Positions 3,949-36,689 of a DNA stretch of 37,623 nt are shown here, piece by piece. Origin of the DNA: a virus (Duplodnaviria; Heunggongvirae; Uroviricota; Caudoviricetes); the IMG/VR virus record IMGVR_UViG_2645727529_000001, positions 1-37,623 of that record. One strand, 5' to 3'. Numbering within the stretch: the first letter of the stretch is position 1; each line of letters opens with the position of its first letter. Both the position numbers and the translations under genes were made by a program. The notes under the pieces were generated by a model. That model was given only the letters and a program-made list of their open reading frames with translations. It had not been told where the DNA came from and made no database searches.

Positions 3949-4802
3949 GCACCATCCTGAAATGGGCGGGAAATAAAACTGCCATAATGTCCGAACTGAA
4001 AAAACATCTTCCTGCTGGCCCGCGACTGGTTGAACCTTTCGCGGGTTCCTGTGCTGTGATGATGGAGACGGATTATCCCAGCTATCTGGTTGCGGATATT
4101 AATCCTGATTTAATCAACCTCTATAAAAAGGTTGCCGCTGATTGTGAATCGTTTATATCTCGCGCCAGAGTTTTATTTGAGATCGCAAACAGGGAGGTGG
4201 CTTATTACAACATAAGGCAGGAGTTTAATTACTCAACTGAAATTACTGATTTCATGAAAGCGGTATATTTCCTGTATCTCAATCGTCACGGTTACCGTGG
4301 TTTATGTCGCTATAACAAGAGCGGGCATTTCAACATTCCCTACGGTAATTATAAAAATCCGTATTTCCCTGAAAAAGAAATTCGCGCATTTGCAGAAAAG
4401 GCCCAGCGAGCAACGTTTATCTGCGCCAGCTTTGATGAAACGCTGGCGATGTTGAAGGCGGGGGATGTGGTGTATTGCGATCCGCCGTATGACGGTACGT
4501 TTTCCGGCTATCACACTGACGGCTTCACTGAAGATGACCAGTATCACCTGGCATCTGTTCTTGAACATCGGTCATCAGAAGGACATCCGGTCATTGTTTC
4601 TAACAGTGACACATCCCTGATCCGTTCGCTGTATCGCAATTTTACTCACCACTACATCAAGGCAAAACGCAGCATCGGTGTGGCAGCTGGCGAGGGTAAA
4701 TCAGCAACAGAAATCATCGCTGTTTCCGGGCCGCGCTGCTGGGTAGGATTTGATCCTTCGCGTGGCGTGGATTGTTCCGTCGTGTACGGAGTGCGTGCAT
4801 GA
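3945..4802 (+). CDS. dam: DNA adenine methyltransferase (Dam family)
   Basis: N-terminal LKWAGNK AdoMet motif and DPPY motif ([10 protein letters not shown]); ATG 3945 overlaps the TraR-like stop. Confidence 0.85.
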
Positions 4803-7213
4803 GCTATGCTGATATGAACAACTGCAGCGGCTTTAACGAGGTCGCCGCAGCATTCTCATGGAACAGCCCGAAAAAGGCCATTAACCCTTATCTGGACCCG
4901 GCGGAAGTTGCGCCGGTTTCTGCGCTTTCAAACCTGATCACTCTATACGCTGCCGATAACGAGCAGGAACAACTGCGCCGCGAGGCACTGAGTGATCAGG
5001 TCTGGGAGCGTTATTTCTTTAATGAATCCCGTGATCCTGTCCAACGCGAAATGGAGCAGGATAAGCTAATTAGCCGGGCAAAGCTGGCGCATGAGCAGCA
5101 GCGTTTTAATCCAGACATGGTCATTCTGGCGGACGTTAACGCCCAGCCTTCCCATATCAGCAAGCCGCTGATGCAACGTATTGAATACTTCAGCAGCCTG
5201 GGCAGGCCAAAGGCTTATTCCCGCTATTTGCGTGAGACGATTAAGCCATGTCTGGAACGACTGGAGCATGTACGCGACAGTCAGCTATCCACTTCTTTTC
5301 GCTTTATGGCAAGCCATGAAGGGCTGGACGGCCTGCTGATCCTGCCTGAAATGAGTCAGGATCAGGTGAAGCGCCTGTCTACCCTTGTTGCCGCGCATAT
5401 GAGCATGTGCCTTGATGCAGCTTGTGGTGATTTGTATGCCACCGATGACGTTAAGCCAGAAGAAATCCGCAAGACATGGGAAAGGGTGGCGGCGGAAACC
5501 CTGCGTCTGGATGTCATCCCTCCTGCGTTTGAGCAACTCCGCCGGAAAAGAAACCGCCGTAAACCCGTACCCTATGAACTCATTCCGGGTTCGCTGGCGC
5601 GTATGTTGTGCGCCGACTGGTGGTATCGGAAATTATGGAAGATGCGTTGCGAATGGCGGGAAGAGCAGTTGCGTGCTGTTTGCTTGGTCAGCAAAAAAGC
5701 ATCTCCCTATGTCAGCTATGAAGCCGTGATGCATAAACGTGAGCAGCGCCGTAAGTCGCTGGAGTTTTTCCGTTCTCATGAACTGGTGAACGAAGACGGC
5801 GACACGCTGGATATGGAGGACGTGGTAAACGCCAGTAGTAGCAACCCGGCGCATCGCCGCAATGAGATGATGGCATGTGTTAAAGGTCTGGAGCTTATCG
5901 CGGAAATGCGCGGTGACTGCGCCGTTTTCTACACCATCACCTGTCCGTCACGTTTCCATTCCACGCTAAATAACGGCAGGCCCAACCCGACTTGGACAAA
6001 TGCGACGGTAAGACAAAGCAGTGATTATCTGGTCGGCATGTTTGCTGCATTTCGTAAGGCGATGTACAAAGCCGGATTGCGCTGGTATGGCGTGCGGGTG
6101 GCTGAGCCGCATCATGACGGTACAGTTCACTGGCACCTGTTGTGTTTTATGCGCAAAAAAGACCGCCGCGCCATCACTGCATTACTGCGTAAGTTTGCCA
6201 TCCGTGAAGACCGCGAGGAGCTGGGCAATAACACGGGGCCGCGCTTTAAGTCTGAGTTGATTAACCCGCGCAAAGGAACGCCGACAAGCTACATCGCGAA
6301 ATATATCAGTAAGAACATTGACGGGCGTGGTCTGGCTGGCGAGATCAGCAAGGAAACGGGTAAATCCCTGCGTGATAACGCTGAATACGTGAATGCCTGG
6401 GCGTCTCTGCATCGTGTTCAGCAATTCCGCTTCTTTGGCATTCCGGGGCGTCAGGCTTACCGTGAACTGCGATTGCTGGCTGGTCAGGCGGCAAGGCAAC
6501 AGGGTGACAAAAAAGCAGGTGCGCCGGTACTGGATAACCCGCGCCTTGATGCAATCCTGGCTGCTGCTGATGCTGGTTGTTTTGCCACCTACATCATGAA
6601 GCAGGGCGGCGTACTGGTTCCCCGTAAATATCACCTCATCAGAACTGCTTATGAAATCAACGAAGAGCCGACCGCCTATGGCGATCACGGCATTCGTATT
6701 TATGGCATCTGGTCACCTATTGCAGAGGGCAAGATCTGCACTCATGCCGTGAAGTGGAAAATGGTTCGTAAGGCCGTTGACGTTCAGGAGGCGGCAGCCG
6801 ACCAGGGCGCTTGCGCCCCTTGGACTCGTGGCAATAACTGTCCCCTTGCTGAAAATTTGAACCAACAGGAGAAAGATAAATCAGCTGATGGGGACCCCAG
6901 AACGGACATTACCAGCATGGATGACAAGGAGTTGCACGATTACCTGCACAGTATGAGCAAAAAAGAGCGCCGGGAACTGGCAGCAAGGTTACGCCTGGTG
7001 AAACCGAAACGGCGTAAAGACTACAAACAGCGAATTACAGACCATCAGCGACTGCAGCTCGTGTATGAGCTGAAGTCCAGAGGATTTGATGGCAGCGAGA
7101 AAGAGGTTGATTTACTCCTTCGCGGAGGCAGTATTCCGTCAGGAGCAGGCCTGCGTATCTTCTATCGGAACCAGCGTTTGCAGGAAGATGATCAGTGGCG
7201 GAACCTGTATTAA
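4799..7213 (+). CDS. A: Replication initiation endonuclease gpA (rolling-circle HUH type)
   Basis: HUH-like HWH ([10 protein letters not shown]) and Tyr motif YIAKYISK; about 800 aa; ATG 4799 overlaps the dam stop. Confidence 0.9.
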
Positions 7214-7305
7214 TTACGCGGGTTAACAATTCGTGCTCTTAATAATACCAGGCATATCAGGCTGATGAACGTAAAAAAACGTTTTACATCAGTAAGATTA
7301 TTATA

Positions 7306-7325
7306 TACTGTAAATATAAACAGTG
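7306..7325. promoter_or_regulatory. LexA (SOS) box
   Basis: TACTGTAAATATAAACAGTG: CTGT-N8-ACAG, matching the LexA consensus at every position that defines it; about 40 nt upstream of the tum-like ORF. Confidence 0.7.
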
Positions 7326-7366
7326 GTTATGCATACAGTATTGCGTGTGGTGTCATAGGAGGAAAG

Positions 7367-7555
7367 ATGCAGGACTATTTTTTGGAGTCTTTGAAGCTCC
7401 AGCGCATTGATTTTTTTCTTAAGCTTGTAGCGGCTAGTGAGTGTAGTGATGAAGAGAAGGGGCTGGCTTTGCAGTGGGTTTCTGAACTAACAGATGAACT
7501 CATGGCAAAAATCAGAACCCACGAATACAACCGCTCAATGGATGTCATCAGTTGA
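7367..7555 (+). CDS. Small SOS-controlled protein (62 aa), possible Tum-like antirepressor N-terminal module
   Basis: AGGAGG RBS 4-9 nt upstream of ATG 7367; directly downstream of the LexA box; occupies the 186 tum position. Confidence 0.45.
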   Translation: MQDYFLESLKLQRIDFFLKLVAASECSDEEKGLALQWVSELTDELMAKIRTHEYNRSMDVIS

Positions 7556-7565
7556 GGTGACTTTT

Positions 7566-7799
7566 ATGCGCATTGAAATAATGATCGATAAAGAGCAGAA
7601 GATTAGCCAGTCTATCCTGGACGCCCTTGAATCCGAGCTTTACCGCAATCTGCGCCCCCTGTATCCCAAAACGGTAATCCGTATCCGTAAAGGTAGCTCT
7701 AACGGTGTGGAACTTACCGGACTGCAACTGGACGAAGAAAGAAAACAAGTGATGAAAATTATGCAGAAAGTGTGGGAAGACGACAGCTGGCTGCATTAA
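7566..7799 (+). CDS. DinI-family protein
   Basis: 77 aa, MRIEIMIDK...ILQ..WEDDSWL resembles E. coli DinI in length and conserved C-terminus; GAGG RBS. Confidence 0.75.
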   Translation: MRIEIMIDKEQKISQSILDALESELYRNLRPLYPKTVIRIRKGSSNGVELTGLQLDEERKQVMKIMQKVWEDDSWLH

Positions 7800-7807
7800 G
7801 AAACGTT

Positions 7808-7837
7808 GCCCCCAAGAAGATTCATTCGAATGGGGGC
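7808..7837 (+). terminator. Hairpin after the dinI-like gene (7-bp G/C stem), weak terminator candidate
   Basis: gccccca...tgggggc inverted repeat; no strong U-tract. Confidence 0.3.
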
Positions 7838-8127
7838 TAGTTTGGGCAATGAGTGAAATAAGGCGTAAGGCGTAAGGTGGGGGGGCATTTTGATAAATGA
7901 TCGTCCGCTTTGTGCCAGAAGCGAACGTTTCTTCTGCTATCTTTCGTCAATTAACGAATGGCAGACTAATTTGCAACGGATAATCTGAATTTTGTAAGAT
8001 TATGGGTATTCCTATAATATTTACCAATAATAACCTTACAATGTACACTACCTATTGAATTTTCCATAGTTGGCCTTTGGCTCTACTTACCATCTATGTT
8101 TATGTATTTTATCAAAATGGACTAAAA

Positions 8128-10020
8128 ATGCACAATACGTACATCAAAGACTATATAGAATATTACCTTAGCCTTAAAACTGAACCTCAATACGCCATTA
8201 TGCTTAAAGGTGCTTGGGGATCAGGTAAAACTTGGTTCATTGAACGAGTTCTTGAAGAATATAAGCAAAAGCATTCAGAGTTCAAATTTCTTAAAGTGAG
8301 TTTGTATGGCGTCAACTCTATTGAGCAGATTGAAGATGAGTTCTATCGTCAACTTCATCCTATTCTATCAAACAAAGCCCTTATCTTTGGTGCAAATGTA
8401 CTAAAAAATACGCTTAAGGCTACTTTCAAGATCGATTTCAATGGCGATAATAAGTCTGACGTAGATGTCAATGCCAGTGTCCCCACCATTAATCTTAGCG
8501 ACTTTAGCAGAGAACCAGATGGTTTTGTGCTGGTCTTTGATGATATCGAGAGAGCTGGTATAGATTTACCAATCTTATTTGGATATATAAATCACTTTGT
8601 AGAAGTAAACGGATACAAAGCGATCCTGGTTGCCAATGAAGAAGAAATAATCAACAGAGAAAAGCGAATAAATAATGATGATGAGAAATCTAGCAGTGAA
8701 TACATAAGAACAAAAGAAAAGCTTGTAGGTAAAACATTTGAAGTAACGTCAGATTTACCTAGTGCTTGTAATGTTTTCTTGGGCGTAATTAGTAGTTTAC
8801 ACGTTGCTAATATATTTAAAGAAGATATGCAGACCATAGAACACCTCTATGTGTCGGCGAAATATAATAATCTAAGACATTTGAGGCAGTTCTTTCTTGA
8901 TGTACAACGCATCATTTCCCTTTTGGGAGATAAATATGTCAGCAACGACGATTTTATGAAAGTATTTTTCCAGCAGTTATTAATTTTCTCGATGGAGTAC
9001 CGGGGAGGGAACCTTAACTACGAGGATTTCAATTCAATCGGCAATGTAAATTATAGTATGTTTTTAGATAAAGGGCGTACCAAAACTAAGTATGACATGA
9101 TCGTCGAGAAATATTCATCACCTGTATTAACCGAGACGTTACTGGATGGTGCGTACTGGAGAGAGCTAATCTGTGATGGAAAGGTAACGCATGATCTTCT
9201 CGCTCAGCTGGATATTACGCGATTTTTTAGAAGCACCGATGCCCAAGCATGGGAGTATTTGTGGAACTATCGAGAACTTAATGAAACTATGCTTAATGAA
9301 CAGTACGCCATTGCCAAGGATAATCTATTTTCAGGTAAGATCACTTCCTTAGGTGAACTCCTGATGACCGCGAGTATTTTGCTGGCATTGGCGAAAGAAG
9401 GTTTAACCACAGATGCTGTTGATGACATTATAAATGAGACAAAACATCATATAGATATTTATTACAATGGATTAGGACCTGAAGATATACATCAGGAGTA
9501 TGCGCAAAGACATTATAATGAGTTAATGGCATGGCGTGGCTTTGGTTTTCTTGACAGGGATAGCGATGAATTCAAACTCATTATTGAGCATATTAAGATA
9601 GCGCAGAAGAAACGGTTTGATGAATCAATTCCGGAGTTTGCATTGAAGTTCAGCGATGAGTTGCAAAGAGGGAATTTATCGTTTGTATCTGAATTGTGTC
9701 ATTCTAATAATAGGCAGCTAAATCTTCATAACGTGCCTTTTTTACACTTGGTTTCTCCTGAAGTTTTCATTGAAAGCTATAGGAAACTTGACCCAATCAT
9801 CATGAGGAAACTGGCATTTAGCTTGAGGGATCGTTATTCTGATAGGGATGCCAGAACCAGACTGACCGAAGAATACAACTGGTTGATTAGCCTAAAAGAG
9901 ATAGCTGTAGATTTCACTCAAAACGCAGCCAATAACTCCTTTCAGGTTTTTCATGTAAAGTTTTTTATTGACTATGCACTAACTAATGCAATCAAATTAT
10001 TTACTGAGGGAACTGATTAA
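8128..10020 (+). CDS. KAP-family P-loop NTPase (630 aa), cargo gene at the tin/old-equivalent hotspot
   Basis: Walker A GAWGSGKT near the N-terminus, Walker B-like VLVFDDIERAG; strongly AT-rich versus backbone; single gene with its own terminator. Confidence 0.75.
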   Translation: MHNTYIKDYIEYYLSLKTEPQYAIMLKGAWGSGKTWFIERVLEEYKQKHSEFKFLKVSLYGVNSIEQIEDEFYRQLHPILSNKALIFGANVLKNTLKATFKIDFNGDNKSDVDVNASVPTINLSDFSREPDGFVLVFDDIERAGIDLPILFGYINHFVEVNGYKAILVANEEEIINREKRINNDDEKSSSEYIRTKEKLVGKTFEVTSDLPSACNVFLGVISSLHVANIFKEDMQTIEHLYVSAKYNNLRHLRQFFLDVQRIISLLGDKYVSNDDFMKVFFQQLLIFSMEYRGGNLNYEDFNSIGNVNYSMFLDKGRTKTKYDMIVEKYSSPVLTETLLDGAYWRELICDGKVTHDLLAQLDITRFFRSTDAQAWEYLWNYRELNETMLNEQYAIAKDNLFSGKITSLGELLMTASILLALAKEGLTTDAVDDIINETKHHIDIYYNGLGPEDIHQEYAQRHYNELMAWRGFGFLDRDSDEFKLIIEHIKIAQKKRFDESIPEFALKFSDELQRGNLSFVSELCHSNNRQLNLHNVPFLHLVSPEVFIESYRKLDPIIMRKLAFSLRDRYSDRDARTRLTEEYNWLISLKEIAVDFTQNAANNSFQVFHVKFFIDYALTNAIKLFTEGTD

Positions 10021-10082
10021 CATTTTGTTGATTAACATAGGTAATATTATTAGAAGTACTAGACATGGTCAGTAAAATTATT

Positions 10083-10110
10083 AAAGTCCGCTTCGCTCGA
10101 AGCGGACTTT
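10083..10110 (+). terminator. Intrinsic terminator after the KAP NTPase gene
   Basis: 12-bp perfect stem aaagtccgcttc/gaagcggacttt with a 4-nt loop, followed by a T-rich stretch. Confidence 0.6.
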
Positions 10111-10305
10111 GTGCTTTATAAAAACGAGAGTTTTGTTTTTCAAGCGGTCATTCGGTTACGGGATTTCACTTCCCCCGTAAGTGCATGACTATGCCGCATG
10201 AGATCGCATGATCGTTTGCGGATCGTTTTTGCTAAGGTCCGCCAGAACTGGCGGGCTTTTGCGTAGATCATGCAGGTGCATGAAAACCACTACATAAAGT
10301 GGGCA

Positions 10306-10324
10306 GGCGTGGCGGGGATACGAG
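10306..10324. other. Putative cos (cohesive-end) site
   Basis: GGCGTGGCGGGGATACGAG resembles the P2/186 19-nt cohesive end as I recall it (GGCGAGGCGGGGAAAGCAC); lies in a GC-rich island between the two AT-rich cargo genes, upstream of Q as in P2. Confidence 0.4.
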
Positions 10325-10544
10325 CGCGCGCAACGAGGTGAAATAGCAAAAACTCGGCACAGCCTACGGCCCGCTAGCGGCTTCAAATTGAAATGGTGAG
10401 GTGCAGCAGCAAAAAAAACGCCCCACAGGAAGTTGTTGAGGTTGTTTATTGAGGGAATTGGCTTAAGCGGTAAAACACAAACATTGCAACTTGTGCATGA
10501 AATTGATACATTGTGCGTAATGTATCTATATTGCGGGGTATTTT

Positions 10545-11216
10545 ATGGCTTTCAGAGCGGAAGAAGCAGCAGCATCGAATTTCGAAAATGCTTACAGATA
10601 TCTAGTTCCACAAGGTTCAAATCAGGAGATGCGTTCGAAAGTTAGGGCGAAGCTCAAAGAAATTGTTGAAGAATGTGGGCCAGTAGTGGATGGGTATCCA
10701 GCATGGCATCCTTTTTTGCTGGAAAGAGATAAAGCTATTTGGGCGCCTATGACTCCCAATAATACTCCTAGCTTTAAATACCTGGACCACACGGTCTATT
10801 TCAGGAACGGCATTCTTACCTGTCCTTATGGTCATGGGGTTGATGAATTTATAGCTGGTATAAAACGTCTAAAGCACACGGATGCCCATTTCTCTATTGA
10901 GAAGATTGATGACGTTGTGCTTTATAATGACAACGCCGTCCCGTTGTTAATAAAATGCCATTGGCTTATTTCGGAAGATATGGAAGAGGATGGCACCATT
11001 CCAGCAAAAGCAGCAATTGGATTGATGCTTGAAAGCGAGGTTCCTAACTGGCGGCATGCAGTTTATTGTGAAAATTGGGAAGATATGCGCGGGCAGTTGA
11101 TGGGATATCCGCACGGTGCCAGATCATCTCTATTTGTTAATCAGCAGACAGGACAGAAAATGAAAAACTTCTGGAATCAGCTGATTAAGACCGGAATTCT
11201 TGGGGAAGAGCGATAA
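10545..11216 (+). CDS. Hypothetical protein (223 aa), cargo gene between the cos-like site and the portal gene
   Basis: Clean ORF, lower GC than backbone, followed by a strong terminator; no family recognised by eye. Confidence 0.6.
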   Translation: MAFRAEEAAASNFENAYRYLVPQGSNQEMRSKVRAKLKEIVEECGPVVDGYPAWHPFLLERDKAIWAPMTPNNTPSFKYLDHTVYFRNGILTCPYGHGVDEFIAGIKRLKHTDAHFSIEKIDDVVLYNDNAVPLLIKCHWLISEDMEEDGTIPAKAAIGLMLESEVPNWRHAVYCENWEDMRGQLMGYPHGARSSLFVNQQTGQKMKNFWNQLIKTGILGEER

Positions 11217-11229
11217 TTTCTTGAGGCTT

Positions 11230-11264
11230 AGCAGCGCCTTTAACAAGCAGAGGCGCTGCTTTTT
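11230..11264. terminator. Bidirectional hairpin terminator between the 223-aa gene and Q
   Basis: 10-bp perfect stem agcagcgcct/aggcgctgct followed by a T-run. Confidence 0.65.
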
Positions 11265-11268
11265 AAAT

Positions 11269-12318
11269 TTAGCTATCGTTGTTTGTGTCTATTCCCAGCG
11301 TGTAGGGCTCGAAGCGGATCACCTCTTTACCTAGCCAATAATTCAGCTCCTGCAGCCGCTTTTGCAGCGGCATCAGTTCATTGCGGACGAAGACACGGCT
11401 CGCTTTTTCCACATCCCCAAAACCCCCAACATTATTCGGCATAATCCCCATCATCTGTGGCGGAACACGATGCGCGGCCATCATGTCATCACGACTCACG
11501 CTCTTGATGTTCAGAAATTCATCTTTCGCTGCGACTTCTGACAACGGGATGATCTGAAGCCCGTCCTTTTTGCCGTTAGGCGAGTACATAAACAGGTTGC
11601 GGAAGTTGCCTGGACCTTTGGCGCTTTTCATGGCATTACGGAGGTTGTTTATATCCTCCTGGTTCTGCGCGGCGTCGGTCATGTACATGATGAAGCCTGC
11701 GTGGCTGCCGTTAATGTAATACTTGCGGCGGAACAGCGTGGCGGACTCGTTGAGTAGGGCTGACGGAATGGCAGAAAGATAACCGGGCAGGCCGTAGATC
11801 TCCTGGTTGATATCCGGTTCCATCAGGTGAAAAATGCTGCCTTTCGTGAACTGATACGGTTGCGTGGTCATGCCGTATTGCACAAACCAGTAGGTATCCA
11901 GGTCTAATCCGCGTCGGGTGTATTTTGCCAGGGCAGGTTCAAGGGCGATAACTTCACCGAAGCGGTTCGTGCGTTTCTCCAGGTAGGCGTTACCAAAAAC
12001 CAGATAGTCCTGCACAAAACGTGAAAACGCCTGCTGGCTGAGCAGCGGATGAGGGATGTAGGTGCTGGTCAGTATGTTGCACTTTACGGCAATCGGTGAG
12101 CTGTGGTGCACGGCGGCGCGAAAGGTTCGCGCCAGCCCGTCGAAACTCACTGGTGGCTCATACCAGCGGTCCATCTGTACGCATTCCACATAGTCCAGTA
12201 ATTCGCGGCGGTCCAGAACAGGAACGGGATCACCGAAGCTGAATGCTTCGGCTGAAGTTTGGTTTTTATGCTGGATCTGGTTCGTCGCCGCAGCGCGGTT
12301 TTTCTTACTCTTTCCCAT
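11269..12318 (-). CDS. Q: Portal protein gpQ
   Basis: About 349 aa, P2 Q-like; ATG overlaps the P stop. Confidence 0.9.
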   Translation of the reverse strand: MGKSKKNRAAATNQIQHKNQTSAEAFSFGDPVPVLDRRELLDYVECVQMDRWYEPPVSFDGLARTFRAAVHHSSPIAVKCNILTSTYIPHPLLSQQAFSRFVQDYLVFGNAYLEKRTNRFGEVIALEPALAKYTRRGLDLDTYWFVQYGMTTQPYQFTKGSIFHLMEPDINQEIYGLPGYLSAIPSALLNESATLFRRKYYINGSHAGFIMYMTDAAQNQEDINNLRNAMKSAKGPGNFRNLFMYSPNGKKDGLQIIPLSEVAAKDEFLNIKSVSRDDMMAAHRVPPQMMGIMPNNVGGFGDVEKASRVFVRNELMPLQKRLQELNYWLGKEVIRFEPYTLGIDTNNDS

Positions 12319-14084
12319 CAAAAAATCTCCACAATATTGCTGGTATTGGCGGACTCGCCCTGCAGCGGTTCGTTAAACAGTGCGTGCATTGTTGCCCAGG
12401 CCAGATCGGCATGGCTGGCTTCTTCGCTGCGGCTGGCTTCATAGGTTGGGCGGTTGCCGCTGGCGGTGGTGGCGCGACGGATTGCCATAAATGACTGCGC
12501 TATGTCGGTGTGTCCGGCGTCAAACTCCAGACGACGGTGACTGATAATGTCGTAGGCCTTGAGTACCAGGGCGTTTTTAACGTTGGGGTTGTAGACAAAC
12601 TCCCGGACGGCTGGAAAAAACGCTTTCACGTTCTCGTAAACCCCGTGACCGACACCCGTCGAGTCGATGCCGATATATGTCACGTTGTACTGTTCGGTCA
12701 GTTTTTTGATGGCGTCCGCCTGGGCGCGGAAGTCCATCCCGCGCCACTGGTGGCGCTCAAGAATACGGAACTTACCGCCCGGCACGGCTGGCGGTGCCAC
12801 CACCACGCATCCGGCGCTGTCGCCGTTCTGCGTACCTTTTGCCGGGTCATAACCGATCCACACTTCGCGCCACCCAAACGGGCGAAGGGCCAGTGCATGA
12901 AAGTCGGTCCAGACTTCCCAACTGTCCACCATGCACGCCTGCAGCTCGCTGAGCGGAAACACGGACGCGAGATCGTCCACAAACTCGCACATCAGCAGGT
13001 TCTGGTATTCGTCCGGGCTGTACTCCATGCGCAACTGGTCAAGGTCGAACAGGTTGCAGCCGCCGCGCACCGCATCTTCCACGGTGACTATCTGGCGGTA
13101 TTGCCCGTCTGCGCACAGCAGGCCGGGGGCCAGATTGCTGTGGGACAGGTCGATGTCCACCTTGTCAGCTTTGTTGCGTCCACGGTTGAACAGCGCACCG
13201 GACCAGAACGGATAAGCACTGTGGGTCAGGCTGGATGGCGTGGAAAAATAGGTTTGTCGCCATTTCTTGTGAATAGCCATCCCGGAAGCCACTTTGCGCA
13301 GCTCCTGGAATTTCGGTATCCAGAAATATTCATCCAGATACAGGTTGCCGTGATAACTCTGGGCCGTGCGGGCATTGGTGCCGAGGAAGTAAAGCGTGGC
13401 TCCGTTAGGAAGCACCATCGGATCGCCTTTTAGCTCCACCTCGACTTCTTTGGCGAAGTCGATGATGTATTGTTTAAAGACGTGGGCCTGAGCCTTACTG
13501 GCAGAAAGGAAAATCTGGTTGCGTCCGGTAAGCAGGGCGTCAATCAGGGCTTCACGGGCAAAATAGAAGGTCGCGCCGATCTGGCGAGACTTCAGCAGGT
13601 TGCGGATGCGGTTGGTTTTTCCGGCTTCCCACCAGTGGCGCTGGTAGTTGAACATGGAGGAATGGAAGATTTCTTCCAGCTTCTCAATCTGCTCATCGGT
13701 GAAAACATTCTTTTCCGGCTGACGGCGTGGGCCTTTATTGCGGTTGGCGACGTTAGGGTTTAAGTCGGCTTCGTTGCCGCCATTGTTAAACTTGCCGATC
13801 CGCGCGTGGCGCTCAGACTGGCGCGCCAGCAGGTCAATCTCTTTGAAATCTTTCCCTTCTTTGTGCTCCTTCATGATGAGCTGGCAGTAGCGTGCTGCGG
13901 TGGTGAGCTGCATCTGGTCCAGCGGCCCATAGTCACCCCACTTGTCGCGTTTTTTCCAGCTGTGAACGGTTGCAACTTTCTCGCCCAGCATTTCAGCAAT
14001 GCGGGCTACGCGGTATCCCTGAAAGTACAGCAGCATGGCCTGCCGACGGGGATCGAGATCTGCGGGTGTCAGTGTGGTGTTCAT
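12318..14084 (-). CDS. P: Terminase large (ATPase) subunit gpP
   Basis: 588 aa, P2 P-like; synteny. Confidence 0.9.
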   Translation of the reverse strand: MNTTLTPADLDPRRQAMLLYFQGYRVARIAEMLGEKVATVHSWKKRDKWGDYGPLDQMQLTTAARYCQLIMKEHKEGKDFKEIDLLARQSERHARIGKFNNGGNEADLNPNVANRNKGPRRQPEKNVFTDEQIEKLEEIFHSSMFNYQRHWWEAGKTNRIRNLLKSRQIGATFYFAREALIDALLTGRNQIFLSASKAQAHVFKQYIIDFAKEVEVELKGDPMVLPNGATLYFLGTNARTAQSYHGNLYLDEYFWIPKFQELRKVASGMAIHKKWRQTYFSTPSSLTHSAYPFWSGALFNRGRNKADKVDIDLSHSNLAPGLLCADGQYRQIVTVEDAVRGGCNLFDLDQLRMEYSPDEYQNLLMCEFVDDLASVFPLSELQACMVDSWEVWTDFHALALRPFGWREVWIGYDPAKGTQNGDSAGCVVVAPPAVPGGKFRILERHQWRGMDFRAQADAIKKLTEQYNVTYIGIDSTGVGHGVYENVKAFFPAVREFVYNPNVKNALVLKAYDIISHRRLEFDAGHTDIAQSFMAIRRATTASGNRPTYEASRSEEASHADLAWATMHALFNEPLQGESANTSNIVEIF

Positions 14085-16138: not shown

Positions 16139-16789
16139 ATGAGCCTGAGTCCCGCACGGCAGCATCGCCTGCGCGTTCAGGCTGAACAGGCCGCCCGCGA
16201 GGGCGGCAGTGTTCGCCACGCATCGGGCTATGACCTGATGCTGCTGCAACTGGCGGAAGACCGCCGCCGTCTCAAGGGCGTTCAGTCCACGGTGAAAAAA
16301 GCGGAAATCAAGGTGGAGCTGTTGCCGAAATATGCCGCCTGGGCGGAGGGCGTCCTGGCTGCCGGAGGCGCTCAGCAGGATGACGTGCTGATGTACGTGA
16401 TGCTGTGGCGCATTGATGCCGGAGATTATGCCGGGGCGCTGGAGATCGGGCGTCATGCCCTGCGTCATGGCTGGGTGATGCCGCTGGGTAACCGCAACGT
16501 GCAGACCGTGCTGGCAGAGGAAATGGCAGACGCGGCGCAGAGCGCAATGCTTGCCGCCACCGGCTTTGATGCCGATCTGTTGCTGCAGACGCTGGAGCTG
16601 ACAGACGGTCTGGATATGCCGGACCAGTCACGGGCGCGTCTGCATAAAGCGATTGGCGCTGTCCTGAGTGAAAGCAACCCGGCTTCCGCCCTTAATCATC
16701 TCAACCATGCGTTACAGCTCGATCCCCGCTGTGGCGTGAAAAAAGACAAACAGCAGCTGGAGCGCAGACTGCGCAATGACAGCCGCTGA
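16139..16789 (+). CDS. M: Terminase small (endonuclease) subunit gpM
   Basis: 216 aa; synteny after N. Confidence 0.85.
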   Translation: MSLSPARQHRLRVQAEQAAREGGSVRHASGYDLMLLQLAEDRRRLKGVQSTVKKAEIKVELLPKYAAWAEGVLAAGGAQQDDVLMYVMLWRIDAGDYAGALEIGRHALRHGWVMPLGNRNVQTVLAEEMADAAQSAMLAATGFDADLLLQTLELTDGLDMPDQSRARLHKAIGAVLSESNPASALNHLNHALQLDPRCGVKKDKQQLERRLRNDSR

Positions 16790-19680: not shown

Positions 19681-21432
19681 CTATTGGTTGAATATAAAGC
19701 TGATAATATTTTCAGGAGTGAGCTCTATGTTTTTTTTATTAAGTTTTTGAATGTACATTTTATATTTCATTTCAACGTTTCGGAAGCCTTGCGCAACAGA
19801 AAGTATTTCTACAGGATGAGATGAAAGCTTTATTAAGGAGTTAATGACTGCATCTAGGTAGATGTGAGCATGTTCAACTAAAACATTTGTTTTTGATGGG
19901 GTTTTTCCAGTGTGAACTATCAAGTTTCTAGTTCTATATATTCTCCTAATTTGCCAGTTGATTCTTTCTGCATGATTTTTAAGTGCCTGATACATAGTAT
20001 CAGTTGAGGAAATTAAATTGCTAATATATTCAAATCTCTCTTTCAATAACGGAAATTGTGATAGTTCTATCTTAAACTGATTGATGCTAGGGGCATGTTC
20101 TTGCGAAGCAACAAGAATTACAAATGATTTGGCTGCATCGCTATCTCCAATTAGTCTTAGAAGTGACATGGTTCGAGGATGATTCCATCGTTGTAAGTCT
20201 TTTATAAGATTCCTTACTAGGTCTTCAATATAATTCAGGTTTAAAAATGGTGTTAATGAATTAACGATATGTTCTATCGTGGATTGTTCTTCTTTTTTTG
20301 ATTCGTCGGGGATGAGTGATTCAATAGCAATCCATAAATTTAAAAGCTGATTTTCTACAGCATTTGTCTGTAGTGCCATTGAATGTAATTGTACACTTCT
20401 TATGAATTTATTGAAAGAATCCTTGCGCATTCTGAAATTATTCATGAATTGTTCGAGTCTTCTGCTTGCGTGTTCCTGAACCAGATCCTTGCAGCGGTGC
20501 ATTGGGTTTATGCTGCTTCTTATATTGATTTTTTCACCATTTTCACTAACTACAATGTTCTCTGCAGACCATGATGCTTCTTGCTTATGATGATAGAGAG
20601 AAAGCAAAGTTGATGCGAGCTTTAAGTTTCTTTCAGCTACCCTTCTAGCCGTGAATGGATCAAGTGCTTTAACATGCTTAACTAAAATAGTTCGTTGTTC
20701 ATGATTATCGAAGAAATCTGTTTCATTAATATTTTCGGGGGTTTCAAGAACAACCTCAATTTCTAATTGTGATAAGCATGGAGTAATATAACTAAAAGAT
20801 TTTTCAGCATTGAAATAAACTGAATATTCTTGTGTCTCTGAGGGGATGTTCTCTAGGAATGTAATAATCTCTTCATTTGAACTGATCTCTCGTTCTCTTT
20901 GGAAGAAATGTTTTTTTAGACTTTCCATCAAATATTCTTGACTTAATCCTTTTGATATTAGATGGGTAATCAACAGTCTTGTAAACTTTCGAATTTTATT
21001 TGGGTTGTATTCTGAAGTTATTGTAGAGCAAAGTTCACTGATGAGTTTGCTTTCATAATTACCAACATTAAGTTGAACTCTCAGTAACTCAAGAGTTATT
21101 TTTAGATTTTTATTTCCTAACTGATTGTTTTGGAGTTGATCTAAAAATGAACCTAAAGGGTTTTTTAGAAGACTGATTGCGATGTCATCATTCTTAATAT
21201 TTTTAGTTAATTCGTCAATGACGTGGGATATATGTGCGGGGCTTATGTTGCCTTTTTCTATATCATCGATTGTTGATATTGCTTCTATACATAAACTTGG
21301 AGTGTTCATTATAGAAGGTTTATATGTACTATGGGTGTAATCAAAGAGAAGTTCCTCCATTAACTCGGTGAAATAAATAAGCGCAGTGCATTGTTCAATA
21401 TGATTCCAGTTGTGTAGTCTTCTAAATTTCAT
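19681..21432 (-). CDS. Large AT-rich cargo protein with C-terminal HEPN-like Rx4H motif; candidate abortive-infection or defence RNase
   Basis: ORF 19681..21552 (TTG start); preferred ATG at 21432 (MKFRRL...) leaves the P_V promoter region free; motif RIYRTRNLIVHTG near the C-terminus; convergent with S and divergent from V at the P2 orf30 position. Confidence 0.6.
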   Translation of the reverse strand: MKFRRLHNWNHIEQCTALIYFTELMEELLFDYTHSTYKPSIMNTPSLCIEAISTIDDIEKGNISPAHISHVIDELTKNIKNDDIAISLLKNPLGSFLDQLQNNQLGNKNLKITLELLRVQLNVGNYESKLISELCSTITSEYNPNKIRKFTRLLITHLISKGLSQEYLMESLKKHFFQREREISSNEEIITFLENIPSETQEYSVYFNAEKSFSYITPCLSQLEIEVVLETPENINETDFFDNHEQRTILVKHVKALDPFTARRVAERNLKLASTLLSLYHHKQEASWSAENIVVSENGEKINIRSSINPMHRCKDLVQEHASRRLEQFMNNFRMRKDSFNKFIRSVQLHSMALQTNAVENQLLNLWIAIESLIPDESKKEEQSTIEHIVNSLTPFLNLNYIEDLVRNLIKDLQRWNHPRTMSLLRLIGDSDAAKSFVILVASQEHAPSINQFKIELSQFPLLKERFEYISNLISSTDTMYQALKNHAERINWQIRRIYRTRNLIVHTGKTPSKTNVLVEHAHIYLDAVINSLIKLSSHPVEILSVAQGFRNVEMKYKMYIQKLNKKNIELTPENIISFIFNQ

Positions 21433-21476
21433 ATTAATACCTTGTTTTGTGAAGCTTGAATTTACCTTTAGCGCAT

Positions 21477-21498
21477 TGTTTGTTGCTTCATACAAACA
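21477..21498. promoter_or_regulatory. Ogr/Delta-type late-promoter site(s) for P_V (two overlapping TGT-N12-ACA dyads)
   Basis: TGT 21477-21479 with ACA 21492-21494, and TGT 21481-21483 with ACA 21496-21498; 43-64 nt upstream of the V start. Confidence 0.55.
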
Positions 21499-21540
21499 TG
21501 GTTTGTTTGTGATCTCAAGTGTTTGATTAAGAATTTGAGA

Positions 21541-22119
21541 ATGAACGTACAACTCACGGAAATCATGCGCCTTATCACCAATCTGATCCGCACAGGGGTA
21601 GTCACCGAAGTGGACCGGGAAAACTGGCTTTGCAGGGTGAAAACGGGCGAGCTTGAAACCAACTGGATCAGCTGGCTGACGCTACGTGCCGGAAATGCCC
21701 GGACATGGTGGCGACCATCGGAAGGTGAGCAGGTGGTGCTGCTGAGTCTGGGAGGCAATCTGGAAACCGCCTTTGCGTTGCCCGCTGTCTATTCGAATCA
21801 GTTCGCGCCACCTTCGACGTCGGCGGACGCCTGCGTGACAGAACATCCTGACGGTGGCTGGTTTGAATACGAACCCGCCACCGGGCGCTGGTATGTCAGG
21901 GGCATCAAATCCATGGTCATTGAGGCTGCCGACAACATCACCCTGAAAACCAGTGAGTTTGTGCTGGAGGCTGACCGCACGCGTATTAACAGCGAAGTAG
22001 TGATCAATGGTGGTGTTACCCAGGGCGGCGGTGCAATGAGTTCTAACGGAATTGTGGTTGATGCACATCAGCATACTGGCGTCCTGAAAGGCGGCGACAC
22101 AACCGGAGGCCCGGTATGA
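21541..22119 (+). CDS. V: Baseplate spike protein gpV
   Basis: ATG 21541; P2 V-like. Confidence 0.85.
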   Translation: MNVQLTEIMRLITNLIRTGVVTEVDRENWLCRVKTGELETNWISWLTLRAGNARTWWRPSEGEQVVLLSLGGNLETAFALPAVYSNQFAPPSTSADACVTEHPDGGWFEYEPATGRWYVRGIKSMVIEAADNITLKTSEFVLEADRTRINSEVVINGGVTQGGGAMSSNGIVVDAHQHTGVLKGGDTTGGPV

Positions 22120-25473: not shown

Positions 25474-26075
25474 TGCATAAAGCAATATTAAATAGTGAGC
25501 TTATTGCAACAAAGGCAGGGGATGTTACCGTTTATAACTACGATGGTGAAACACGGGAATATATTTCCACGTCAACTGAATATCTTGCTGTTGGTGTCGG
25601 TATTCCGGCATGTTCCTGTCTTGATGCACCTGGCATACATAAGGTTGGTTATGCAATCTGTCGTTCTGTGAATTTAAATTCATGGGAATATGTGCCAGAT
25701 CATCGCGGTGAAATCGTCTATAGCACCGAAACAGGAGAATCGAAAGAAATCACAGCTCCGGGTGATTATCCTGAAAATACAACCACTATCGCCCCGTTAA
25801 CGCCATACGATGAATGGAATGGTGAGAAATGGGTGACAGATACCGAGGCACAGCACGGCGCAGCAGTAGATGCAGCAGAAGCACAGCGCCCGTTGCTGAT
25901 TGATACTGCAATGGCCTCCATCAGTCTGATTCAACTGAAATTACAGGCCGGACGGAAGCTGACGCAGGCAGAAACAATCCGCCTTAACGCTGTGCTGGAT
26001 TACATTGACGCGGTGACGGCAACAGATACCAGCACAGCGCCGGATGTCATCTGGCCTGAACTGCCGGAGGCGTAG
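25473..26075 (+). CDS. G: Tail fibre assembly chaperone gpG (expressed orientation)
   Basis: 200 aa; follows H with ATGA overlap; G-like conserved C-terminus. Confidence 0.8.
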   Translation: MHKAILNSELIATKAGDVTVYNYDGETREYISTSTEYLAVGVGIPACSCLDAPGIHKVGYAICRSVNLNSWEYVPDHRGEIVYSTETGESKEITAPGDYPENTTTIAPLTPYDEWNGEKWVTDTEAQHGAAVDAAEAQRPLLIDTAMASISLIQLKLQAGRKLTQAETIRLNAVLDYIDAVTATDTSTAPDVIWPELPEA

Positions 26076-26508
26076 GCCATTCAATATCTGGCGCACCGGA
26101 AGTATCGATCAGCTCCAGTGCGTCCAGATAATCCAGCCACAAATTATATTGTGCCAGTTCCTCACCTTTCAGACGACCGATAGCTGCTTTACCAGGCCAT
26201 TGCTTACCGTTCATGTATTCGTTGGCATGGTCAATTCTCGACTTTTTCTCTGAGTCAGCCGCAGCAAGTTGTTCTTTATGCGTAGGTGACGGAAGATCTA
26301 CCCAGCAAGGCAACCCATCATCACCAATGCCACGCATTTTACCCTCAGGAGCGTTTCCCATGAAAACCAGTGCATCTTCAGCATTTATATTGATGCCGTC
26401 TGACGGCCATGTGCCAGCAGTTAAATAATCATATTTCAGTGCCACAAGATAAAAAGCATTTTCCGTCGGGCTGAATACATAGTCGACCATTAATATCCCA
26501 CTCCCCAT
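26047..26508 (-). CDS. Alternative tail fibre assembly chaperone (G'), inverted cassette
   Basis: 153 aa; C-terminus (...DALELIDTSGAPDIEWP) parallels G (...DAVTATDTSTAPDVIWP); opposite strand inside the invertible segment. Confidence 0.7.
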   Translation of the reverse strand: MGSGILMVDYVFSPTENAFYLVALKYDYLTAGTWPSDGININAEDALVFMGNAPEGKMRGIGDDGLPCWVDLPSPTHKEQLAAADSEKKSRIDHANEYMNGKQWPGKAAIGRLKGEELAQYNLWLDYLDALELIDTSGAPDIEWPTPPAVQAR

Positions 26509-26846
26509 ACTGCCACTGTTGAATTAGATTTCGTGTATGCGCAAGCGGCTTTGAATTTGACCCGGTCAACAATCGCTGCGCTAACAAAAGGGGCTCCATT
26601 AGTCGCGTAGATCACAGAATTGACCAGCGAAGGATTGATGGAAAGGCAAGCATTAGGAAAGGCAACCGGCCATGAGTCATCAACAACGACCATATTACCG
26701 TCGGTAGATTGCGGCACTGATAGCGTCTTCCACTGAAGCAATGCTATTCGTTGTACTCCACCAATTAATACTGGAATAGTGATGTTACCTGCACTGCTGG
26801 CTAATGCTGTCGCAGCAGGCATTTTCGCTGCTTCTCCCAAACCAAC
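26490..26846 (-). CDS. Alternative tail fibre C-terminal cassette (Hv'), silent in this orientation
   Basis: Minus-strand ORF whose VGLGE codons coincide with the right hix-like site, mirroring LGLGE of H at the left site; would fuse to the H constant part after inversion. Confidence 0.6.
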   Translation of the reverse strand, partial: VGLGEAAKMPAATALASSAGNITIPVLIGGVQRIALLQWKTLSVPQSTDGNMVVVDDSWPVAFPNACLSINPSLVNSVIYATNGAPFVSAAIVDRVKFKAACAYTKSNSTVAVWGVGY

Positions 26847-26857
26847 GTTTATGAAAA
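26832..26857. repeat. hix/gix-like 26-bp inversion crossover site (right)
   Basis: TTCTCCCAAACCAACGTTTATGAAAA; inner 14 bp are the exact inverted repeat of 25013-25026. Confidence 0.65.
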
Positions 26858-26906
26858 TGCAGAGATAACGGCTAACTGGCATCATCTCCGGTTTTTATTC
26901 AGGGGG

Positions 26907-27479
26907 ATGATCATGCTTATTGGCTATGTACGCGTGTCAACAAATGACCAGAACACCGATTTGCAACGCAATGCACTGAACTGTGCGGGATGTGAGCGGA
27001 TTTTTGAGGATAAAATCAGTGGCACCAAGTCCGACAGACCGGGGCTGAAAAAGCTGCTCAGGACACTATCGGCAGGAGACACGCTGGTTGTCTGGAAGCT
27101 GGACAGACTGGGGCGCAGTATGCGGCATCTTGTTACGCTGATAGAAGAGCTGCGCCAGCGTGGCGTGAATTTCCGAAGCCTGACTGACAGTATTGATACC
27201 AGCACCCCAATGGGCCGTTTCTTTTTTCATGTCATGGGTGCCCTGGCTGAAATGGAACGCGAACTGATAGTTGAACGTACCAGGGCGGGGCTGGCTGCAG
27301 CTCGTGCTAAAGGCAGAGTAGGTGGACGCCGTCCTAAGTTGACCAGCGAACAGTGGGCACAGATTGGGCGTTTACTCGAGGCCGGAGAATCAAGACAGCG
27401 TATTGCACTGATTTTTGATGTAGGCGTTTCTACCATTTATCGAAAATTTCCGGCAAATAAGAACAATAAATCTCCCTGA
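26907..27479 (+). CDS. Serine DNA invertase (Hin/Gin/Pin/Cin family)
   Basis: N-terminal IGYVRVSTNDQNTDLQ resolvase catalytic motif and C-terminal HTH; AGGGGG RBS favours the ATG at 26913. Confidence 0.9.
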   Translation: MIMLIGYVRVSTNDQNTDLQRNALNCAGCERIFEDKISGTKSDRPGLKKLLRTLSAGDTLVVWKLDRLGRSMRHLVTLIEELRQRGVNFRSLTDSIDTSTPMGRFFFHVMGALAEMERELIVERTRAGLAAARAKGRVGGRRPKLTSEQWAQIGRLLEAGESRQRIALIFDVGVSTIYRKFPANKNNKSP

Positions 27480-35003: not shown

Positions 35004-36689
35004 TTATCCTAATCCTGGCCATACCATGACGATGATTGTCCCTGCCAGCGTCAGCAGGACGTTGGCGATTGCGTAGGTGCCCGCATAGCCCAGCGCAGGG
35101 ATGTTACTGCGAGCTGTATCACTGATGATCTCCATTGCCGGCGCGCAGGTGCGTGCGCCCATCATTGCGCCGAACAACAGTGCGCGGTTCATTCGCAATA
35201 CATAAGCACCGAACAAGAAACAGATAACCACGGGCACAAGACTGACAATTAATCCGGCAATCAACATCTGACCGCCAATCGCGCCCAGGCCGTTATTAAT
35301 ACCGCTACCGGCGCTCAGACCAACGCCTGCCATAAACACCATCAAGCCGAACTCTTTCACCATGCTTAATGCACCTTGCGGAATGTAACCGAAGGTCGGG
35401 TGGTTAGCACGCATAAAGCCCAGCATAATTCCGGCGAATAACAACCCGGCAGCGTTCCCCATGCCGAAACTGAATGTGCTGAACTGGAAGGTGATCATCC
35501 CGATCATCAGCCCAATAACAAAGAAGGCGCAAAATGCCAGCAGGTCAGTGACCTGGCTGTGAATCGAGATAAAGCCGATGCGATCGGCGATGGTTTTTAC
35601 GCGACGGGCATCACCGCTGACTTGTAAAACGTCACCTTTGTTAAGCACGACGTTGTCATCTATCGGCATCTCAATCTGGCTACGAATGACGCGGTTAAGG
35701 AAGCAACCGTGATCGGTCAACTTCAGTTGTGCGAGACGTTTACCTACAGCGTTATGGTTTTTAACGACCACTTCTTCAGTGACGATACGCATGTCGAGAA
35801 GGTCACGATCGAAAACTTCTTTACCGTTACGGAAGCTGGGATCGAGTCGGGCATGGGCGTCGGGATAGCCTACCAACGCTATTTCATCGCCCATTTGTAG
35901 CACGGCATCACCGTCTGGATTTGCCAGAATCCCGTTACGTCGAATACGTTCAATGTAGCAGCCGGTTTGTCGATAAATACCCAGTTCACGCAGATTTTTG
36001 CCGTCGGTCCAGGCCACCAGCTCCGGGCCGACGCGATAGGCGCGGATCACCGGTAAATAAACCTTACGGTTGGCATCAGTGTCCAGGCCACGTTCGCGGG
36101 CGATTTGCTGGGCGCTGGTCTGTAAGTCCTGATGCTGCAATTTCGGCAAGTAACGCGCACCAACAATCAAACTCACCAGACCGATTAAATAGGTTAAGGC
36201 ATACCCGAGGCTCAGATTATCCAGTGCCAGTGAGAGCTGCCTGCTTTCCATGCCGGAATGACGCAGTGTATCGCCAGCACCGACCAGAACCGGTGTCGAC
36301 GTCATAGAGCCTGCTAACATACCGGCCGTCAGGCCAATATCCCAGCCAAACAGCTTACCTAACCCTAAGGCGATCACCAGCGCACTGCCAACCATCACCA
36401 GTGCTAACATTAGGTAATTTTTCCCATCGCGAAAAAAAATGGAAAAAAAGTTCGGTCCGGCTTCGACCCCGACGCAGAAAATAAACAGCATAAAGCCAAG
36501 ATTAAGCGCATCGGTGTTAATGCTGAAATGTTGTTGGCCTAATAACAGCGATACGACTAAAACGCCAATGGAATTACCCAGTTGGATCGAACCAAGTCGT
36601 AACTTTCCGAGACATAGCCCAAGCGCGAGGACCACAAATAATAACAGAATGTAATTCCCATTTAACAATTCGGCGACGTTTATATTCAC
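35004..36689 (-). CDS. ybjL: Putative transport protein YbjL (AAE-family transporter)
   Basis: 561-aa multi-TM protein recognised as E. coli YbjL; neighbours ybjM and grxA as in E. coli. Confidence 0.85.

Follow-up and report, generated by a model that had tools for sequence, protein, structure and literature searches.

The DNA analysed here is a virus record of 37,623 nucleotides (IMG/VR record IMGVR_UViG_2645727529_000001, the whole of which we refer to as the window), and the subject is a short GC-rich island that very probably contains the packaging site (cos) of a P2-like (Peduoviridae) Escherichia coli prophage of the 186/Fels-2 type. The island, at 10150-10430, lies between a plus-strand gene for a KAP-family P-loop NTPase (8077-10020) and a plus-strand open reading frame (ORF) for a protein of 223 amino acids (10545-11216), beyond which the portal gene (11269-12321) runs on the minus strand. 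Its guanine-plus-cytosine (GC) content is 53.4%, compared with 37% in the KAP gene and its 3′ flank, 35% in the region upstream of the 223-aa gene and 55% in the portal/terminase backbone. At 10306-10324 on the plus strand it holds the 19-mer GGCGTGGCGGGGATACGAG, which has no other match in the window with three or fewer mismatches, none being expected by chance.

A homologue of the 186/P2 cos site

Alignment of the window to the joined right and left ends of the 186 and P2 records, and to the genome ends of P4 and Salmonella phage SEN8, shows that the 19-mer coincides exactly with the cohesive ends of all four, the flanks being conserved as well. The cohesive ends are annotated at the record starts, as GGCGTGGCGGGGAAAGCAT in 186 and GGCGAGGCGGGGAAAGCAC in P2, and the 19-mer is identical to them at 15/19 positions (including the first 13) and 14/19 positions, respectively, in agreement with the resemblance to the P2/186 cohesive end proposed in a preliminary description of this DNA. 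The start of the overhang, GGCG(A/T)GGCGGGGA, is present in the window with 13/13 matches to 186 and 12/13 to P2 and P4. On either side of the 19-mer the window reads CATAAAGTGGGCA and CGCGCGC and 186 reads CATAAAGTGGGCA and TGCGCGC, GCGCGC being common to both. The alignment of columns with the annotated ends of 186 and P2, and the match to SEN8 at 19/19, predict 10306-10324 as the 19-nt cohesive-end sequence (cosN).

The exact 19-mer is already known as a cos site. The SEN8 record starts with it (labelled ‘putative cos site’), its last base is the homologue of 10305, and the genome announcement of SEN8 prints the identical sequence as cos site. In phage Cartapus the homologous stretch is annotated ‘putative cos site, homologous to the cos of P2’.

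We profiled conservation over 44 distinct relatives, all of which have the identical 19-mer. Per-base identity is random (mostly 0.05-0.5) up to 10180, rises to about 0.9-1.0 over 10181-10331 and is random again from 10332, while BLAST breakpoints against relatives with other cargo fall at 10183 and at 10330/10331. The conserved cos block on the plus strand is thus 151 bp long (10181-10331; −125 to +26 from the nick; GC 55.6%) and has 125 bp in front of the 19-nt overhang, towards gpA, and 7 bp (CGCGCGC) behind it, towards the portal gene; 137/151 of its positions are identical in SEN8, 95/151 in 186 and 78/151 in P2. Its portal-side end, 10277-10331 on the plus strand (TGCATGAAAACC...GGGCA, the 19-mer and CGCGCGC), is the equivalent of the 55-bp P2/P4 core, with 53/55 identical positions in SEN8, 45/55 in 186, 42/55 in P4 and 41/55 in P2. 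The cos of P2 and the 55-bp P2/P4 core were reportedly described by Ziermann and Calendar in 1990. Only about −29 to +26 can be aligned between P2 and P4, which reproduces the 55-bp core common to P2 and its satellite P4 that is cited in the literature (PMC9594776, PMC5694545).

The island of about 280 bp delimited in the preliminary description therefore stands as a region of high GC and falls as a single unit, since only 10181-10331 is conserved among relatives. It is a composite, in which 10150-10180 belongs to the left cargo module, 10181-10331 is the cos block and the sequence from 10332, to 10441, is left over from a spacer. This remnant (plus strand; GC 50.9%) is homologous to the full 140-162 bp spacer between cos and portal of cargo-free relatives, the alignment (to L052, L071, L099, L122 and Yersinia phage MLG42) reaching +136, which is 10441. 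It ends in a decayed terminator of the portal operon, of which an A-run and the left arm persist at about 10404-10428, and, judged by its sequence, it lies outside cos proper. The island looks GC-rich only because its backbone DNA, of 55% GC, has AT-rich imported genes on both sides, and it reaches to about 10441 because the prophage has kept 110 bp of the original spacer.

The cos homologue stands in the canonical position and has a complete cognate packaging gene set in addition to its sharp conservation bounds. The portal gene (Pfam Phage_portal; homologue of P2 Q and 186 W) encodes a protein 62% identical to P2 Q and 65% identical to the 186 portal. It is followed on the minus strand by the gene for a large terminase subunit of P2 gpP type (12318-14084; Pfam Terminase_5, Terminase_6N and Terminase_6C), the predicted cos-cutting and packaging enzyme, and a small terminase subunit of P2 gpM type, predicted to recognise cos, is encoded on the plus strand at 16139-16789 (Pfam Phage_term_smal, 2.2e-40). 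Genes for scaffold and capsid, which lie before the small terminase gene, and for head completion, after it, make up the rest of the P2-type packaging set; an integrase gene precedes replication gene A.

Several points weigh against reading the island as the cos site of this prophage, or against details of that reading. The last six bases of the overhang (the ACGAG region) are only 2/6 identical to the experimentally defined ends of 186 and P2, so that the predicted nick positions rest on alignment rather than on mapped virion DNA ends. In SEN8 the cos assignment was made by annotation and in Cartapus by homology to P2; the literature yielded no experimental termini for this cos variant, the sole paper with the sequence being the SEN8 genome announcement, where cos is likewise assigned by annotation. 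Within the block the window departs from the clade consensus at 10219, 10238 and 10300, although the T at 10300 is also found in 186. Finally, that this prophage continues to be packaged is something we infer.

The three substitutions could also be read as signs of a cos relic, inherited by a defective prophage and no longer cut or packaged. Decayed P2-like prophages with a degenerate cos do exist: in Serratia marcescens, for example (loci L141-L144), the 19-mer is mutated and the portal and terminase genes are in fragments. In the window, however, the genes for the portal, both terminase subunits, scaffold, capsid, head completion and replication are full length and have strong family matches, and neither the 19-mer nor the core nor any GCATGA motif is disrupted. 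Moreover, about 24 unrelated E. coli genomes share the 5.2-kb region with the window at 98-99.9% identity, strains NC101 and ML35 have this prophage at 98-99% identity over 7200-12400, and the span from the integrase to the host gene is about 35 kb, near the 35.2 kb of SEN8. We therefore regard a relic as quite improbable. That the island instead encodes a non-coding RNA or a small protein is hardly credible: a minus-strand ORF of 65 codons is present at 10189-10386 and some phage records annotate short genes for a ‘hypothetical protein’ in the homologous block, but conservation is uniform, lacks codon periodicity and stops at 10331 in the middle of the ORF, which has no Pfam match and is not called as a gene in the RefSeq annotation of three E. 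coli relatives, and we rejected it on these grounds; in an Rfam scan of 9900-11400 the sole two matches, with E = 0.31 and 0.49, were no better than chance and lay outside the island.

Repeats, hairpin and predicted packaging

The hexamer GCATGA occurs five times within 101 bp of the block, compared with 26 times in the whole window (Poisson P ~1e-8). Three copies are direct repeats on the plus strand (at 10183, 10196 and 10206, spanning 10183-10211) and are candidate terminase recognition repeats; the other two, at 10268 and 10278, form an inverted pair, TCATGCA-GG-TGCATGA (10268-10283), just upstream of the core. We compared 98 diverse cos regions (mutual identity <90%) of P2, 186, Fels-2 and P4 type, in which GCAT recurs at −123 in 55/98, at −110 in 77/98, at −100 in 82/98 and at −28 in 95/98, and ATGC at −36 in 64/98.

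Between the two groups of repeats lies an inverted repeat on the plus strand, GTCCGCCAG-AA-CTGGCGGGC (arms 10237-10256), followed by TTTTG, the four T ending at 10260. Its RNA fold has a free energy of −21.9 kcal/mol (z = −4.0), which none of 200 shuffled sequences equalled, and within the clade it is conserved at 0.9-1.0. In the diverse cos regions a consensus CGCCAGnnCTGGCG, at −65 to −52, forms in 35/98, compared with 0-2 in slid registers. The repeat is found in 186 and, with different arms, in P4, in both cases without a T-run, and is absent in P2. The hairpin of the preliminary description is thus real, while the terminator role suggested for it is one of two possibilities. A rho-independent terminator would block read-through from the cargo or the Tum operon across cos and would not be a packaging signal. 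It would fit the strong GC-rich helix of 8-9 bp followed by TTTT, the conservation of stem and T-run (0.9-1.0) in the Fels-2-type clade and the position downstream of plus-strand genes. We nevertheless consider this role possible but unlikely, as the equivalent repeats of 186 and P4 have no T-run, the CCAG..CTGG core is kept as sequence and not through compensatory change, and the 2-nt gap between the arms resembles a symmetric protein-binding site; in addition, a terminator scan did not list the hairpin, only four T follow the stem, and the KAP gene already has a terminator of its own at 10082-10111. The two roles, terminator and packaging signal, are not mutually exclusive.

The same elements are seen in 186 (NC_001317, bases 1-19 and the right-end flank), where three upstream TGCAT, an ATGCA..TGCAT pair and a CGCCAG..CTGGCG repeat lie in the same register and cos, as in the window, has A-tum and the portal gene as its neighbours. 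The two sites differ in bases 14-19 of the overhang (TACGAG in the window, AAGCAT in 186) and in that 186 has no gene in the 196 bp between cos and portal, its orf97 being on the other side. The cos of P2 shares the architecture and position, but has A at overhang position 5 and no inverted repeat, and all known P2 cargo (old, tin) is on the right-end side. SEN8 and other Fels-2-type phages (Felsduovirus, Elveevirus) are closest; SEN8 and Cartapus also have cargo between cos and portal, although in SEN8 the cargo differs on both sides and the ancestral spacer is kept to about +49, compared with +136 in the window. The cos of lambda (cosQ-cosN-cosB; PMC7617512) is alike in that terminase-recognition sequence flanks its nicking site, its cohesive ends are 5′ and genomes are packaged at unit length, but its overhang is 12 nt long instead of 19, its sequence and terminase family are unrelated and, unlike in lambda, hardly any of the conserved sequence of the window lies beyond the nick on the second side.

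During lytic growth, the prophage's own terminase (small subunit from 16139-16789, large subunit from 12318-14084) would recognise the block at 10181-10331. As to which elements of the block are bound, we can only infer that the small terminase subunit or a host factor would most obviously act at the GCATGA motifs and the inverted repeat. Nicks would be made 19 nt apart, on the top strand before 10306 and on the bottom strand after 10324; the 186 record words this as ‘top strand cut at 5′ end and bottom strand cut at 3′ end’. One genome would then be packaged with 5′ single-stranded GGCGTGGCGGGGATACGAG ends that re-anneal after injection, and would have the 223-aa and portal genes at its left end and the KAP gene at its right end. 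This reading predicts the start and end of the packaged genome for this prophage, and it explains the island of distinct composition with nothing new invoked. It leaves the current understanding of P2-like phages unchanged, and it makes the 151-bp block a candidate for the smallest signal with which Fels-2-type helpers could package cosmids or engineered satellites.

Cargo on either side of cos

The left slot extends from the DinI/Tum-like gene to cos and holds the KAP gene. It is bounded by backbone on the plus strand (4772-7799) in the order of the 186 A-tum region, namely replication gene A (4772-7213; Pfam Phage_GPA, 3.5e-127), a small ORF and the DinI/Tum-like gene (7494-7799; Pfam DinI, 2.5e-22), and homology to Klebsiella phage 4LV2017 ends at 7797, at the end of the last of these. 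The left cargo module (7800-10180, plus strand) consists of the KAP gene (Pfam KAP_NTPase, 1.9e-21) and the terminator at 10082-10111, which is bidirectional. The NTPase is a full-length match to the PADLOC candidate defence system PDC-S49 (E 4.7e-161) and also matches PHROG 4740, of unknown function. The right slot extends from cos to the portal gene and holds the 223-aa gene. Its cargo module (10442-11300, plus strand) comprises a promoter-like site at 10503-10532, the ORF and a bidirectional terminator at 11230-11260. In relatives with other cargo homology resumes only at 11303-11359, inside the portal gene, so the right module carries its own last 10-30 portal codons as well as the terminator. 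Because nothing beyond −125 and +26 is required, the DNA there can be replaced, and it forms the two slots; the cos block, the A/tum genes and the portal gene may serve as homology arms through which the cassettes are exchanged separately.

A scan of IMG/VR with GGGCRGGCGWGGCGGGGA yielded at least 120 loci. The pattern spans −5 to +13, and conservation within these bounds is uninformative in this sample because the loci were selected by it. Every listed locus in which both neighbours were detected has the order gpA (plus), cos, portal (minus), as does the window. Among 120 loci listed, the window's variant ATACGAG is the commonest (42), followed by the P2 type (30), ATAGCAT (19) and the 186 type (12). 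The portals of the listed ATACGAG loci are 75-100% identical to that of the window and those of the other variants 52-74%, one locus excepted. In the window clade, the distance from cos to portal is 140-162 bp in four of the loci listed and 538-3360 bp in 27, including the window, and it is about 170 bp in 22/26 of the P2-type loci listed; the distance from gpA to cos ranges from 486 to 3646 bp in the loci listed.

In a comparison of 27 loci, 12 types of left content and 22 types of right content occur in 25 combinations, which bears out the proposal, made in the preliminary description, of a conserved packaging site between exchanged cargo with two independent insertion points. In E. coli relatives the same KAP gene is paired with four right contents: the 223-aa gene, a DUF4145 gene, an HNH gene between two hypothetical genes, and a 97-aa gene. 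The DUF4145 and the hypothetical and HNH contents are each paired with two left contents and recur in Cartapus and SEN8, and Klebsiella phage 4LV2017 has a retron in the right slot. The right module of the window is present in 24 of 5426 complete E. coli genomes; a search of E. coli for this module with another left module found none, the KAP gene being in all 24 genomes, so the independence of the two slots is shown with modules other than the 223-aa module. In one E. coli genome (MS20659, NZ_CP082073.1) an IS30 element interrupts the right module, and the match to 10332-11268 consists of the first 553 bases in one piece.

The right junctions are concentrated at one place. The ancestral spacer is recognisable by homology as far as +25/+26 in 29/47 loci and to a point between +28 and +71 in 13/47; it is kept to +136 in the window and is whole (to +147-157) in four cargo-free loci. 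The first cargo base is T in about 22 of 31 distinct junctions, and the ancestral spacer starts with A. We would attribute the pile-up mainly to selection for a minimal cos. A dedicated acquisition route, for example one in which foreign DNA is joined to the left end once cos has been cut, or a recombination hotspot at CGCGCGC, might account for both the pile-up and the preference for T, but we think this improbable; the alternative is selection that keeps the minimal cos together with homologous exchange between phages.

Variable loci near cos in P2-like phages have been described before and are the same phenomenon. In a 186-related prophage the DNA between cos and the adjacent terminator was found to be replaced (Dodd and Egan 1996), the cos-to-portal position has been termed a hotspot for foreign genes (PMC5694545), and gpA-to-portal is a defence hotspot in Rousset et al. 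2022 (PMC9122126) and in a 2026 study in Nucleic Acids Research (PMC13586616). These two large surveys treat gpA-to-portal as one hotspot, whereas here we find two cassettes with a fixed block of 151 bp between them and right junctions concentrated at +25/+26. The only additions made here are the precise borders, the spacer remnant and the repeat architecture, compiled from about 100 diverse sites. The borders at −125 and +26 may help to delimit cargo genes in thousands of related prophages.

The 223-aa protein belongs to a family of proteins of about 220 amino acids with 203 database hits, in Enterobacterales, Marinobacter, Halomonas, Acinetobacter and Roseibium. Pfam, PHROG, PADLOC, NCBIfam and the Protein Data Bank (PDB) gave no sequence match to the family, and tblastn of the protein against phage records gave no match. 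Its invariant residues include H55, H82, C93, C138 and a GxPxGxRSSLF motif. AlphaFold predicts its structure with confidence (predicted local distance difference test score 91.5, predicted template modelling score 0.88), and no fold relative was detected. In the S. marcescens loci L141-L144 a 63%-identical homologue (6001-6669) occupies the same slot between cos and portal, after a HicB gene; these loci are in a decayed P2-like prophage with cos at 5147, where the 19-mer is the mutated variant GGCGAGGCAGGGATAGCAT and an Eco57I-like gene lies across cos. A Marinobacter homologue is a stand-alone gene in an island of mercury-resistance, pyocin and transposase genes.

Overhang variants in satellites and other parts of the window

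All five listed IMG/VR loci with the variant GAGAGCAT (L011, L056, L086, L088 and L104) are P4-like, with alpha, sid and psu and, in 4/5, an integrase; no portal or gpA gene was found near these five. The other four P4-like loci listed comprise three with the P2-type 19-mer, whose variant is AAAGCAC, and one (L044, with only a weak sid match) with ATAGCAT, and ATACGAG was found in none of the nine listed loci with clear P4-like gene sets. The variable half of the overhang seems to be divided between satellite and helper lineages. A lack of exchange between P2 and P4 has been described (the 2026 Nucleic Acids Research study, PMC13586616).

The exact 26-mer GGCGTGGCGGGGATACGAGCGCGCGC is present in species-representative genomes of many Enterobacterales genera. 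It also occurs in the Betaproteobacteria, on six contigs of Chitinimonas sp. BJB300 and three of C. taiwanensis (loci L146-L149, L152, L166, L169 and L177), where the left block has diverged (about 40-68% identity). One of these loci (L177) has a P4-like layout, with cos, an AAA_21 ATPase, a DUF4062 gene and an integrase, and psu- and sid-sized ORFs on the other side. This Chitinimonas locus does carry ATACGAG, so that a link of the variant with P4-like satellites is made less likely by the nine IMG/VR loci rather than refuted. In another (L146), a type VI effector cluster (VgrG-DUF4123-DUF3304-Tle1) directly follows cos.

Elsewhere in the window, a minus-strand ORF of 623 codons (19681-21552) lies between tail and lysis genes, at what we take to be the position of P2 orf30. 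It has a weak PADLOC match to ApeA (E 2e-12) and no Pfam match, and is probably a third cargo slot. A resolvase/invertase gene (26907-27479) adjoins oppositely oriented ORFs for tail-fibre assembly and a tail-fibre C-terminus (26047-26885), an arrangement which suggests that 26047-27479 is an invertible host-range segment of Gin/Cin type. The minus-strand ORF at 35004-36689 encodes an Asp-Al_Ex/TrkA_C transporter, and a similar host gene flanks the decayed Serratia prophage. Because this ORF is host DNA, the right end of the prophage lies before 35004 and the element is about 35 kb long.
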